Source of the DNA: Zootoca vivipara
Lineage: Eukaryota
DNA: 64,000 nt
NCBI RefSeq assembly: GCF_963506605.1
Contig: NC_083280.1
Coordinates: forward strand, 47,740,001-47,804,000
Reading direction: 5' to 3'
In this document: piece by piece, positions 5,010 to 58,145 of the stretch
Position numbering within the stretch: the first letter of the stretch is position 1
Layout: every line of letters starts with the position of its first letter
Made by a program: the position numbers and the translations under genes
Notes under the pieces: model-generated
The model's input: only the letters and a program-made list of their open reading frames with translations
Database searches by the model: none
What the model was told of the DNA's origin: nothing

Positions 5010-5313
5010 GTACCCATTCACTTATTTCCCACTTATTCTGGTTTCCTCCTCTTTGATAGCAAGTGGTATATGCAGAGCTGCAGCCAGACTTCATCACAAG
5101 GTGGTGGTTCCACAATTTTAGGTGTGATTTCAAAGAAATTAATTTAGATCTGACAAGTGTTTATGATTTCCCCCCCATTAGAAACATATAAATTAATTGA
5201 GAACAGTTAGTTTTAACTTCAGCAGCATTTACCTACTTACAGTGAACAGCTTATGTGGGAAAGACAGGTGTGTTTATTCAGGCAAATGAAAATCAACTAC
5301 ACTGGAAAAATTA

Positions 5314-5532
5314 CAGGTAGGTAGCCGTGTTGGTCTGCCGTAGTCGAAACAAAATTTTAAAAAAATCATTCCAGTAGCACCTTAGAGACCAACTAAGTTT
5401 GTCATTGGTATGAGCTTTCGTGTGCATGCACATGTATCTGAAGAAGTGTGCATGCACACAAAAGCTCATACCAATGACAAACTTAGTTGGTCTCTAAGGT
5501 GCTACTGGAAGGAATTTTTTTATTTTGTTTCG
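5314..5532. mobile_element. Penelope-like element derivative: two inverted pLTR copies forming a hairpin
   Basis: Both arms match 14401-14532; left arm is reverse complement and carries the 3' tail; 13-bp direct repeat ACTGGAAAAATTA flanks it (5301-5313, 5533-5545). Confidence 0.88.
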
Positions 5533-8349
5533 ACTGGAAAAATTAGGCAGGCACCCCTTGATCTAAAAGACTGGTGCTTTCTGTTTCAAAAGAGTTAAGT
5601 AAATTAATAGTACACAATGAGCAAGGTGAACAAAAGGTGTAAAATAAATAGAACAGCTTACTATAACTCAGAAGTGAAAAAAATGCCAAAGCTTATTTTC
5701 TCAAAGATTCAAAAACAGGTTAGGAAATAGTAAGGGCAAAACCCAATCAAATTAAGCACTTTCTTCAATTATTGTTTTAGATATGCTTCTCTCCCAGGCA
5801 GAGAATGGCAAGCTCTGCTGGCTGCAGCAACTCTAAACTGGACTTGCCAACTGACTAGAAAGCCAGTCTGGCCTGCTCTTGAATAGCAGCATCTCTGCAA
5901 GAGAAACTTGCCATGGAATGGAAATAAGCATTGCCATCTGCTAATGCTGTTGATCAAAGAACTATTATGGTGCATCAGCCAGTAACCAAGTTGTAACCCT
6001 ACTCATAACTGGTTTGTGGCACTATTGAGGCAAATAACGGATCCAGGCTTTGGTTGCCATCCTGATAAATTTCTAGGAAGGGAGCAAATAAGCTTAGCAT
6101 AGTGCTGCTTGAAAATCTAAATGTACTTATGAACATATGTTGTAAATATATAATGTTAAGTCATACCTGTATGTTTGAAGTTCATGGCTCCACCTAGCTT
6201 GCCACTCTCACCCGGGAACACTGAACTTCTCATAGCCAGTGTCTGCGTGCTTTGTGGACAATCTTTGAAACAATGAGCTCTTCGGTAGTTAATTAGCCAT
6301 TTATTCTTCGCCTTAATGCATTGTGGAGAGAAAACGGGCAGAAAAATGAAACTGTCAAATGCAGCCTGCAACCATAGAAAGTCTTCAGATGATCAGAGTT
6401 GCTCCTCTTGTTATCAGTCTCTTTCAGATTTGAGTTTCCTTGCAATTTTATATTTTGTACTCTTGAATGCATCTATCATTCTTCAGTGGAGAAGACACAG
6501 ACGGATGGGGATCTACTGGTTAATAGTTCCCAAAAGATGCAGCAGGCAGTTCTTAATTACCTGTAATGTGGTACAGTTGGCTTGTACTACTTTTCTGAAG
6601 ATTAATGAAACGCAAACAAGAGTTTTGCTGCTTTTTTTTCCTGAAGGAGCAGAGAAATTTGGCAGCAGAAACAGCTGAGTAATTCTGCAAACTATTTTGG
6701 GTGTCACTCATATTTCTTAGAAGGGAGAAGTATGTTATCTGATCATCTATAGAAACACACCTCTCTTTCTGATTTTACATCATCTCCACTGGAAAACTTA
6801 ATCTTTTGCCCCAGTTTGTTCACAGTAATTAAGTAACAAAAGGAGACTTAAAGTAGCCAATTGCATTCCTATCTCCAGTCCTGCAGAACTTCATGTTTCT
6901 CATCTTCAAAGCAAAAGTAGTTATTCACCATCTCAGAAGTGGTCACAGGAGACATTGCTTAAGAACAAGACCCAGTTTGCCTTATGAAAGAATTCAAAGT
7001 TTGTTTAGCGTTCACCTCATGGGCTGAATTTGCTTTTTGGAATTATATGCAGCAGCAGGTTTTTAATTTAATTTCCCCACTGAAGTAATTTTGCATAAAT
7101 ACACATTAAAAGTTTTGTTTTGCGTTATAGCACACCAGGCCACAGCTTTTCAAAATGCATAGCCATAGATACAGATACACCCTTTTCTAATGAATTAACA
7201 TAGTGTATAATGAAGTGATACCTTGGCTTCTTTAAAGGCAAACAATGGAATCCTTTATTAATGGAACATTGGTAATATCAAATTTGATTATTCTCGAGAA
7301 TGAAAGACTCTCAGGAACTGACCTTTGAAATTCAGTCGCTTCCTGATTACCTATTTATTTAGCATCCATTCTGATTTGTTTATAGGGAAGATAAACAATG
7401 CCATATCAAGCAATTGTTATCTCACAGTGACTTTTCTGATACATTCTTTACTACAGAAAGTACAAATCATTACCATATTGCCCTTGGGACTCTGTCAATG
7501 GTGATTTTCCTTCCTGTGCCATTTTTTTCAATGGGAAAGGGACAAGCATTGATGGAAGAGAAGTTTGTTCACCGTGCAGATGTTGCTCCTTCTTGCCCCC
7601 CCCCAATTCACTTTGATGACTCACATTGAACAAAATAAGCTTTGTACCATGCAACAGATTTGGGACCAGAATACTTGAATAATCATAGAAGCTTAGAAGA
7701 CTCCTGCACAAACAAGATACTCACTGCGACGTTTTAGATAAAATTTTCAGTGCCTGCCATAATGAAAGTGGTATCTGGTGATGCCATCACATCCACTGTT
7801 TAAATTAGCCATTTTTTAATAAAAAAGTTCTAAATTATTAACTTCCCCCCCAAAAGTGATATTTGATGGCAAAAGTAATATCCGTGTGCAGTATTAAGTG
7901 ATTCTTATGAAAAGAAAAAGCTGTAGAAATCTGACAGAGCATAATAATTATACTGTCAGAAAATACACAGTTCCATTTTCACAGAGCTGTCTAGATCACC
8001 AGGTTTCGCTTTTAGAGACTGCTCATCAGGGTAGTAAGATTTATTTTGTCTCTAATTACTGTGTGGTAGGTGTTGTTATGGAGAGCAATTCAAGAGAAGT
8101 AAGCTACAGTATATGCATTGTTGTTTTCAACGAGAACTTGTGAACCGATGCAGAACACCCACTTGCCAAACATATCATAGGACAATTTTGGGCAATAAGC
8201 TCCTGCAGTCCTGCGGTCCCGTGGAAAGCAACCATCACTGATAGCTGCCATGACTCTCCTTGCCTAGCTGCCTTGAACTAGGCATGGGCAGACCAGTCTA
8301 TTTCTCATCCTGTCAGTTACACATGTGTTTATTCATAAGTCCCTTCCAC

Positions 8350-14401: not shown

Positions 14402-14439
14402 GTATCTGAAGAAGTGTGCATGCACACGAAAGCTCATAC
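14402..14439 (+). ncRNA. Minimal type I hammerhead ribozyme motif (PLE type)
   Basis: GUAU-CUGAAGA-A-GUGUG(CAUG)CACAC-GAAA-GC-UC/AUAC: intact core, 4-bp stem I, 5-bp stem II, vestigial palindromic stem III (AGCU); predicted cleavage after 14435. Confidence 0.8.
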
Positions 14440-14619
14440 CAAAATAAAAACTTAGTTGGCCTTTAAGGTGCTACTGAAGGAATTTTTTTATTTTGTTTTG
14501 ACTCAGACCAACACGGCTACCTACCTGTAACTAGACCTATGGAGGAAGGGCATGATAAAAAAAATTAGCAAATAAATAGTGAATGCAGTGAATGCAGAGG
14601 TAGTGATCTAGCTATTTCA

Positions 14620-55121: not shown

Positions 55122-56696
55122 CAGAATGCCTAAAACTTCACTGAAGTTACTAACAAAATCTCCCTTTGATTTTGGTAGGCTTTCAATGAGGCCTGGGATG
55201 TGTTCTGTGATTCAGTTTCAAATTGGGGTTTTTTTATAAAAAAAAATGTAAGATATAACGTGGCAAGGGAAAATTAAGAGGAGGAATGAAAACAATCTTA
55301 AAGCTTCATTCCCTCAGAGATCTTGAAGTGAAGTTTTTTTTCCTTCCCCTTCACAGATCTAATGTTGAAGAATTTTCAGCCCCCTGAGCAGGTAGCATAT
55401 GAATTAGGTTTTCAGGATTGTCTGACTTAATGGCAGAATAATTGGAACTTACTGCATCAAATCTATATTGACATTCAGGAATAGTTTCACTTTTATTGTG
55501 CGTTATCCTACCGCACAGAAAGCTGCTGCAATTATCAATTACGAACCAATATCAATATTTAGTCAAGATCATTTTTAACACCTGCAGCTGAAATTTGTTT
55601 TAAAAATAAAAAGCCAGGTTTATGGACTCCTGGCATGAGGAAATCTACTATGCTTTTAACAAATCTGTGGTATGTGCATGTTGCCAAGCTTATGTCAATA
55701 AACATGTTAGCCCTATGCACAAGGTTGGTCCAAGACATTATTCTGCCTGAGGCGAAAGATAAAATGATGTCTCCTCCCCTTCTTAAATGTATAAAAGTTA
55801 AATTGTAAGACAACAGGACATTGTCCTCTACTGCAATTGTGGTCAGCAAGTATTTACCTCCCAATGAAAGTTAAGCATGAGGGTTTCAACAGCATTCATC
55901 ATGATGCCTTTCAGATTATGGCAAAAGGATTGCACCTAAAGATCAGCACTAGAAAGCTGCATCCCACAATCTTAATTTTCAATGCCTTTCAGACTAACCT
56001 TGGCATGGTTTTAAGATTTAAACCATTTGTGTTCCCCTTTCCTCCAGGCCATGTATTGGTCTGGCTCTTATGGCGAGCCCTTTAAAAGACAGGGAGCTAA
56101 CGATTTTATTCAGAACTATTGTTCCCTGCCCTAAACCCTGGAGATGAGATGAAGTTCAAATCAAAATATTAAGTGTGGTCCCATAAATTGCCAGGAAAAA
56201 AGAAGTGCAGTTTCTGTAACGACCTTTATTGCTTTACAGAGAAGCTCACATATTTAGTGTCTTCGGCAAACTATTGAGAAATACCAGCAGAGATTCAGCA
56301 GGCACTTTCTGTTTCAACTTTTAAATGCTTCCTGAAAACTTTTCTATTCAATCCGGCTTATGTAGGCAATTAATAATACATTTCCCCCCATAATAGCTGA
56401 TTTCTGATTTCAACATTTTAATACGGTTTTAATTTTATGTTATACATATAAAATGGTTGTAAAGCATCCTGGGGTGTTTTTTTTTTTAAGGAGCAGAGGT
56501 ATATAAATATTTTTATAAAATAAATAAATAAATAAATATATTGGTAGCTTAGTAAACTGTTATGGAAAACAGGAGTAGATCACACAGATCCTTAGTAGGA
56601 ACTGCAGCACCAAATAAAGCCAGCTGTACATTAAAATTTCACATGACATGTTGATTGGTTCATCATTATGGCTTATCAACATCAGTTCCTTTAATA

Positions 56697-56890
56697 AATA
56701 AATTCCTTCCAGCAGCACCTTAGAGACCAACTAAGTTTGTCATAGGCATGAGCTTTCGTGTGCATGCACACTTCTTCAGATATATACCTATGACAAACTT
56801 AGTTGGTCTCTAAGGTGCTGCTGGAAGGAATTTTTTTTATTTTGTTTCGACCACGTCAGACCAACACGGCTACCTACCTGTAACTACCGT
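56697..56890. mobile_element. Penelope-like derivative: inverted pLTR hairpin with intact hammerhead core on the minus strand (56746-56783)
   Basis: Arms match 14401-14532; 13-bp direct repeat AGTTCCTTTAATA (56684-56696, 56891-56903). Confidence 0.88.
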
Positions 56891-57816
56891 AGTTCCTTTA
56901 ATATTATACTGTATATATTTCTTCAACATCTGTTTTGAGGTGCAACCCCCTCTAGGATTTGGACGCTAGCAGCAAATCGACAGCAGAAATGATTCCATTT
57001 CTTTGTGCTGGTTGTAAAACTGAGAATGAATGACTTCAGGCTTCTTTTTGAAAGGTTAACCCCATACTGCACTTTTTTGATCCCGAAGGACCCTACTACT
57101 TTGGCAGCATCTCTTTCAATTAATATAATTCACATCATGGTGCGTTTAAATGTCAGCAAGTCATTTGACCTGGCTTGCTACAATACAACATACAGAATAC
57201 AACATAGAAGAATGTTGGCCTGAGCTGTATAGAAAGTGAAAGATACACAAACACAGCCCAGAGAATCAGACTGATATGTGCCTTTTCTCCATTCATGCAT
57301 TCTCCTGATTGTGCATCTTTAGTTAAAGGAATTGCTTTCAGAGCAAATAGTGATCGGATCCCCACCCCACCCCGGTAACATTTAAAAATGCATATAGATT
57401 GTGTGTGTGTTAATACTGAGGAGAGGAATATAGACACAGCAATATATCTTTTTTTTTGAGGGGGAGTGGGAAATGGGGTGTGTGTGCTTAAAAGTAAATC
57501 AACTCTGACCCTTAAACATGTTCACTGTGTGCATGTTTTTCTAACAAAATGTTAACATTTACTGGAGCAGTCTGGGAGAAATCTCTGGTTTCTGACATTT
57601 ACTGATTATTTTCAACAATACCCCCACAGCAATGACCCAAAGAAGATTCCATAGCCATGCACTCAAGGCAAGTCCAAAAGGCAACTGTGTTGATCCATTT
57701 TTATATATACATGGACCAGTCCATAGAATAATACCCCATTTATTAGGACCAGGCATGACCACAATCCTATGAACAGCCTACGGGGAATAAGCTCCATTAA
57801 ACTCAGTAATCCTGCC

Positions 57817-58145
57817 TAAAGGTAAAGGTAAAGGGACCCCTGACCATTAGGTCCAGTCACGGATGACTCTGGGGTTGGGGCGCTCATCTCGCTTTACTGG
57901 GCAAGGGAGCCGACGTACAGCTTCCGGGTCATGTGGCCAGCATGACTAAGCCGCTTCTGGCGAACCAGAGGAGCGCACAGAAACATCGTTTATCTTCCCG
58001 CCAGAGCGGTACCTATTTATCTACTTGCACTTTGACGTGCTTTCGAACTGCTAGGTTGGCAGGAGCTGGGACCAAGCAACGGGAGCTCAGCCCATCGCGG
58101 GAATTCGAACCGGCGACCTTCTGATTGGCAAGCTCAGTGGTTTTA
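57817..58145 (-). mobile_element. Sauria SINE with deleted/truncated head
   Basis: (AAAGGT)n tail and body match 50052-50406; head shortened. Confidence 0.92.

Follow-up and report, generated by a model that had tools for sequence, protein, structure and literature searches.

The window, which is the whole 64,000-nucleotide stretch of Zootoca vivipara DNA that was analysed, holds at 56697-56890 a 194-bp head-to-head insertion with a tail on one arm and a hammerhead motif in the other. Positions within the element are numbered so that +1 is the first base past the predicted hammerhead cut, -1 is C17, and -34 is the first base of helix I. A repeat comparison found exact 13-bp direct repeats, the target-site duplication (TSD) given in the preliminary description, flanking the unit on the plus strand at 56684-56696 and 56891-56903. 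TSDs in the family range from 5 to 16 bp, with a mode of 12-13 bp in 73 hairpins. The inverted, tail-less arm (56697-56782, minus strand) runs from pLTR position -33 through the hammerhead to a U-rich tract at about +54, as read from the sequence and the family pattern. The forward, tail-bearing arm (56784-56886, plus strand) runs from +1 to the tail end, and its start at the predicted cut stands as first described, 56784 being the first base past C17. The end of the inverted arm, placed earlier at the 5' edge of the hammerhead, held in part: the arm does end in CAGATA at 56782, but the match to the element stops at -33, one base short of the helix-I edge at -34. Between the arms lies a T (56783) that is templated by neither; it may be filler, or the -34 base may have changed from C to T.

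The arms form a 54-nt inverted repeat (56696-56749 and 56784-56837) that is 96% complementary, and they are not identical, differing at +3 (56747) and within the U-rich tract. In the forward arm this tract occupies 56831-56846 (plus strand), where the inverted arms of the family end, and it would be the region of a second RT start. The PLE tail (56838-56886, plus strand) belongs to the forward arm only, and an inverted arm with a tail was seen in just 2 of 78 hairpins. In long copies (L078, L062), the tail continues into sequence that would be the start of the ORF. Four bases at 56887-56890, between the tail and the right TSD, match neither the continuation of the element nor the TSD. Tail end, extra bases, and the beginning of the right TSD together (56882-56895) make up a 6-bp micro-palindrome, which is either chance or a trace of priming.

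The hammerhead is a minimal type-I motif at 56746-56782 on the minus strand, read against the features given in PMC4209133. It comprises a core box (56779-56773), one unpaired base, a 5-bp helix II, GAAA at 56757-56754, and a 2-nt palindromic loop III, with the cut predicted between 56750 and 56749. The G10.1-C11.1 pair, the unpaired base preceding helix II, the core boxes, and the palindromic loop III are all present, as in other pLTR hammerheads. Across 180 arms, core position 7 was A in 161, C in 12, and T in 7, and it was the sole non-CpG core position to vary markedly. Rfam scans returned no hammerhead model matching the motif. A miRNA precursor was rejected, the Rfam hairpin hits reflecting shape only and all falling under the gathering score.

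The family and its long copies

The 30-nt tail motif has 4497 exact matches in the genome, and the subfamily-A arm motif has 11,984. Long copies continue upstream via a CCAAT/TATA region into an ORF that is absent from the focal stub. An 841-aa frame in long copy L069 holds RVT_1 (PF00078) and GIY-YIG (PF01541) domains above the Pfam cut-offs and stops some 300 nt upstream of the pLTR and tail that the copy shares with the stub. A single ORF with RT plus a GIY-YIG domain at the C terminus, as found in these long copies, defines an EN+ Penelope-like element (PLE), which confirms the earlier assignment of the unit as a PLE derivative. By eye, the L069 frame also shows a Cys cluster between RT and GIY-YIG, corresponding to the Zn-finger-like Cys motif in the RT-EN linker that characterizes Neptune/Nematis (PMC8557442). 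The inverted 5'-truncated copy, the 30-40-bp one-ended tail, and the TSD expected of such elements were likewise found, and inverted arms end at about +40 to +75 relative to the forward arm in 71 of 73 hairpins. The focal unit is the 3' end of a Penelope-like element encoding RT and GIY-YIG, of which the genome has thousands of short copies, often shaped as hairpins. The variants that its two arms share, first taken as private, proved to be subfamily alleles: among 211 subfamily-A arms across all fetched loci, CCTATG occurred in 73, the GCTG allele in 24, and both in 13.

Two other classes were considered. A MITE was rejected on account of the asymmetric arms, the variable junction, the TSD range of 5-16 bp, and the retroelement ORF in long copies. 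A non-LTR retrozyme requires head-to-tail tandem units that each carry a hammerhead, and the focal unit is head-to-head with one motif. PLEs are typically arranged with head-to-head arms, a tail on one side, and a TSD (PMC8557442, PMC3846280, PMC2377424). The focal locus itself is ordinary and its arrangement already known.

The same window contains a family hairpin that has both halves of the hammerhead and is flanked by what looks like a 12-bp TSD (5311-5534), a solo family copy beginning just above -34 (14403-14533), and a fragment of the family (36400-36468). It also contains a repeat at about 57820-58140 that resembles a squamate Sauria SINE, and a weak tRNA match (36.6 bits) at 30852-30920 that is probably a tRNA-derived repeat. 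At L082:3987-5020, a palindromic PLE insertion of about 1 kb lies some 4.5 kb upstream of a frame resembling HSP70.

Where the arms start

The start-site histogram was sampled on the tail only, from 90 loci representing most of the first 100 places with the tail motif and 90 from the first 100 of 206 further places, with their neighbours. From these 180 loci came 178 unique arms that bear a tail and have a recognisable anchor, including 78 in hairpins; 30 similarity-ranked loci were left out of the histograms because they are biased toward the query. Among the 178 forward arms, 36 extend past -45 and 52 begin at -36 to -31, with the mode at -34 (21 arms). Only eight begin at -1 to +2, comprising six scored by script and two helix-I overlaps that had been mis-extended to -22. 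The inverted arms (n = 78) behaved similarly, with 44 beginning at -36 to -31 (mode -34, 16 arms) and 2 at +1/+2. The preliminary description had predicted peaks at a putative transcription start site (TSS) and at the cleavage site; arm starts do peak at -34 in both arms, and no peak was found at the cut (8/178 at -1 to +2 vs 52/178 at -36 to -31).

For a closer look at the cut, we classified arms lacking the upstream AA (500 genome-wide), using the 89 that were unique among the first 90 fetched. Setting aside 7 indels along with 3 joins in tandem and 15 by microhomology left 64 of these, and a few short inverted arms are probably classed among them as solo. Start counts from -5 to +5 were 3, 8, 1, 8, 6, 8, 5, 7, 7, and 11, which is flat outside helix-I overlaps, with 8/64 at +1 (p = 0.31) and 5/40 in solo copies. 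Matched whole-genome patterns gave 60 starts at +1 vs 37 at -3, or 53 vs 34 after 7 and 3 insertion mutants were removed by eye; this difference has p = 0.03 against equality and p = 0.18 against a rough composition-based ratio of 1.25. Given the flat profile and this weak difference, there is therefore no sharp peak at the cut. A weak +1 excess and a small contribution from cleavage are possible. Small insertions at the cut, which would be the trace of nicked and religated RNA, were not in excess either (3 clear cases of 45, by eye). Taken together, the genomic proxies for cleavage after C17 appear negative or weak.

The check in RNA reads used three raw RNA runs of one study, of which about 6% each was read, placed on one long copy. 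Neither at the cut (locus 4874) nor at -34 (4840) did read starts or ends pile up, and 87-89% of the placed reads continue into unlike sequence. This check is a weak one, since most reads come from stub copies inside host transcripts. None of the listed sequence sources containing the stub is recorded as RNA. At L078:4560-5060, runs X21-X23 gave thousands of RNA reads with the stub inside unrelated transcripts on both strands, and read depth jumped about tenfold near -34 and dropped at the tail end, mirroring the boundaries of the genomic stub.

The -34 edge has further regularities. A TATA-like box lies 30-32 nt above it in 6/6 long reference copies. The base at -35 is T in long copies, and the base preceding arms that start at -34 is G in 2865 of 4277 cases genome-wide (67%), against a composition expectation of 30.5%. 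With helix-I overlaps removed, G was observed at -35 in 26/37 tail-anchored loci (p = 7e-7) and in 50/70 of all loci, compared with 6/32 before starts at -32 to -28 (p = 3e-5 vs 26/37). In solo copies alone the excess was weak, at 7/13 (p = 0.07) for tail-anchored loci and 9/16 (p = 0.03) for all loci. Apparent starts at -36 and -37 lacked the G (1/11 and 0/6), and starts at +1 showed no G excess (10/60, by eye).

An untemplated 5' G is an accepted cap signature for L1 and SVA (PMC4859970), and the extra 5' G here is likely a copied cap, though a C added by terminal transferase, not templated by the cap, could also account for it. From these patterns in the genomic copies we infer a capped transcript whose first base is G(-34), where helix I has its 5' end, made from a TATA-type promoter in the pLTR, where PLE start sites are described to lie (PMC6765202). 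A copied cap would extend the helix-I match to five bases. Because the extra G is on the sense strand, it argues against antisense self-priming (PMC3846280) in the Zootoca family. Two other sources of the pattern were rejected. In D. virilis, helix I marks the end of an intron (PMC4209133); a 3' splice site would here put the edge at -35 by its acceptor AG, the AG is missing in one reference lineage, and no constant upstream exon was seen in 100 contexts. A subfamily with G at -35 does not fit the diverse upstream contexts, of which 5/100 were point mutants of long copies (by eye).

Junctions and routes of formation

Of the 400 hairpins with an inverted arm extending to -33, the first 100 had their junctions surveyed by eye, and 30 were checked by script. 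Forward starts clustered at -17 (12), -13 (12), -12 (9), -10 (13), and +1 (7), and every cluster coincides with a predicted short match between the end of the inverted arm and the forward arm. At +1 this match is helix I itself (4-5 nt), and +1 is the smallest of the five microhomology classes. All 65 near-cut junctions were then read by eye, and 29 overlap at ATAC; on one strand, these 29 would yield a predicted hammerhead whose helix I is longer by about 50 bp. The focal junction type accounts for 7/65, six reading CAGATAC-ATACC and the focal copy differing by one C-to-T. The six parse as an end at -35 plus a 2-nt CA overlap that includes C17, a base that a cleaved 3' product would lack, which counts against a cleavage reading of this junction type. 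In 49/78 hairpins, the focal copy among them, the junction gap is 0 or more, with no overlap and with fillers present, so annealing explains only part of the joins. Short fillers copied from the 5' end of the element are common at junctions. The route of formation cannot be assigned from a single junction. In one hairpin (G000:C4:68079220, L168/L169), both arms start at +1 across a 2-nt palindromic overlap and differ in their +6 alleles; no other single locus is as good a candidate for a pair of templates or for cleaved ones.

The relation between arms is also informative. In 34 hairpins it is the tail-less arm that extends to -34, in 6 it is the tail-bearing arm, and in 9 both do. Since the TSS-reaching arm mostly lacks the tail, the tail-bearing arm is not its fold-back copy, and the best fit is with two priming events. 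At the +6 A/T site, 7/150 hairpins are discordant, against 59 expected if the arms were independent, which bears out the earlier suggestion that both arms usually come from one template or source. Compared with a background of 1.55 at other A/T sites, the discordance is in slight excess, which may reflect two RNAs in some events.

The explanation we favor, with a probability of roughly 0.7, is that the unit is a short head-to-head insertion of a PLE 3' end, in which both strands of a staggered target cut primed RT on capped, uncleaved RNA and the cDNA ends were joined. It builds on the observed family membership, TSD, one-sided tail, start-site histogram, G at -35, and microhomology at many junctions, and adds promoter, cap, priming, and annealing as putative steps. 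A TATA-type promoter in the pLTR would start a capped RNA at G(-34). One target strand would prime at the tail end, the second some 40 nt upstream, within the U-rich tract. Both arms would be antisense cDNAs that grow in the direction of the cap, each from its own end of the TSD, and that often include a terminal C copied from the cap. An end of one cDNA would then anneal to its partner over a short match, or be joined to it via filler, before the flap is trimmed; the start of the shorter arm would mark the position of the join, not the end of its RNA. In the focal copy, the join may have fallen at +1, favored by helix I and the CA match, without cleavage.

The preliminary description had instead joined a copy of the hammerhead's cleaved 3' product, as the forward arm, to an inverted copy of uncleaved RNA, and we now consider this unlikely. 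The exact +1 start of the focal forward arm, a hammerhead core that looks selected, and the excess of non-canonical +1 over -3 starts (53 vs 34) speak for it, and the 29/65 ATAC overlaps would also be expected from two flap-free ends at -34 and +1. However, the -5 to +5 profile is flat, including in solo copies, the ATAC class does not outnumber the 2-4-nt classes between -10 and -17, and neither G before +1 starts nor small insertions at the cut are in excess. A capped end butted to a cleaved product should give the extra-C form in the majority of cases, yet this form was found once, against six without it. In vitro, the main template was uncleaved RNA, and no RNA-seq read is reported to end at the cut (PMC11167929). 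A genomic record of self-cleavage in vivo is thus unsupported across the family, where +1 starts are flat and the +1 junction cluster corresponds to helix-I microhomology, and the focal copy makes a poor case for cutting by the ribozyme in living cells. Overall, the earlier observation was partly confirmed and its interpretation partly supported.

Less probable still is that one cDNA, or an antisense RNA as for rotifer PLEs, primed itself and the second arm was copied from the first. Self-priming on an antisense template has been proposed (PMC3846280), arms agree at diagnostic sites, and six hairpins have a tail-bearing arm at the TSS with a shorter tail-less arm. The common fillers copied from the element's 5' end also indicate that snap-back priming happens. 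Against this, a fold-back copy cannot gain a tail, and in 34 hairpins the TSS-reaching arm is tail-less while the other is tailed; in addition, a template of sense orientation is indicated by the extra G at the sense 5' end, and the +6 discordance hints at two RNAs in some events. We give very little credence to the remaining alternative, in which a longer palindromic insertion lost its center after integration and the +1 junction arose by chance. Long perfect inverted repeats are unstable, and an asymmetric deletion would yield the focal shape, but the junctions retain RT-like fillers as well as the extra C, and the end of one arm usually falls on the same base, features that a later deletion would not preserve.

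Related elements and implications

EN+ PLEs of the Pen2a_Av type (PMC3846280; layout in PMC8557442) share with the Zootoca family the head-to-head arms, the tail on one arm, and a TSD, of 9-13 bp, as well as TATA and initiator-like motifs in the pLTR and an RT with a GIY-YIG partner. Unlike Pen2a_Av, the Zootoca unit consists of only the part below the putative TSS, has no ORF, and is present in thousands of copies; its data indicate a sense, capped template, whereas antisense self-priming was proposed for Pen2a_Av (PMC3846280). The protein of Poseidon from Anolis carolinensis cuts and extends both strands in vitro, with two internal RT starts bounding the tail; uncleaved RNA is used and ribozyme cleavage is dispensable, and none of that study's RNA-seq reads is reported to begin or end at the hammerhead cut (PMC11167929). 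Priming on both strands from two start sites is thus described in vitro for Poseidon and suggested by genomic copies in Zootoca. In its main text, the Poseidon paper (PMC11167929) does not deal with 5' junctions, cap copying, or inverted arms, unlike the present analysis. The Zootoca family also differs from Poseidon in being a different lineage with a Cys-motif linker and in having its hammerhead upstream of the tail, outside the ORF as read.

Inversions in L1 cover non-overlapping parts of one RNA, whereas both Zootoca arms copy the same 50-90 nt and so form a hairpin. Otherwise, L1 twin priming and the 5' G of L1 and SVA offer close parallels, with two primed cDNAs joined as an inversion and an extra G at the RNA 5' end (PMC4859970). 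The Zootoca unit resembles the minimal hammerheads of PLEs (PMC4209133) and the non-LTR retrozymes (bioRxiv 10.64898/2026.07.22.740005) in having a minimal core of type I, a helix I that is short, a palindromic loop III, closely spaced opposite-strand pairs, and a derivation from PLE pLTRs. Unlike the retrozymes, the Zootoca unit has one motif, no head-to-tail array, and no sign of a circular template; the retrozyme preprint deals with tandem forms. A literature search, covering mostly titles and abstract openings, found no report of twin priming, strong-stop, or cap copying in PLEs, nor of the extra G. The putative cap signature and the arm asymmetry across the family are of more note than the focal locus.

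On balance, we lean toward regarding the stubs as 'strong-stop-like': the PLE enzyme would start some 135 nt away from its own mRNA's cap, copy through the cap from both strands of a single staggered cut, and fuse the cDNAs. Single junctions at the hammerhead cut are weak evidence for cleavage in cells, because helix I supplies a 4-5-nt match there. The family statistics, namely the start site, the cap signature, and the arm asymmetry, can be tested with the existing in vitro system, and they bear on how PLEs form inverted and tandem insertions, a process that has been called undefined (PMC8557442). If the strong-stop-like reading is true, the stubs would be a base-precise, cap-marked genomic record of the PLE template, settling whether it is sense or antisense, and head-to-head pLTRs would be explained without ribozyme cleavage.
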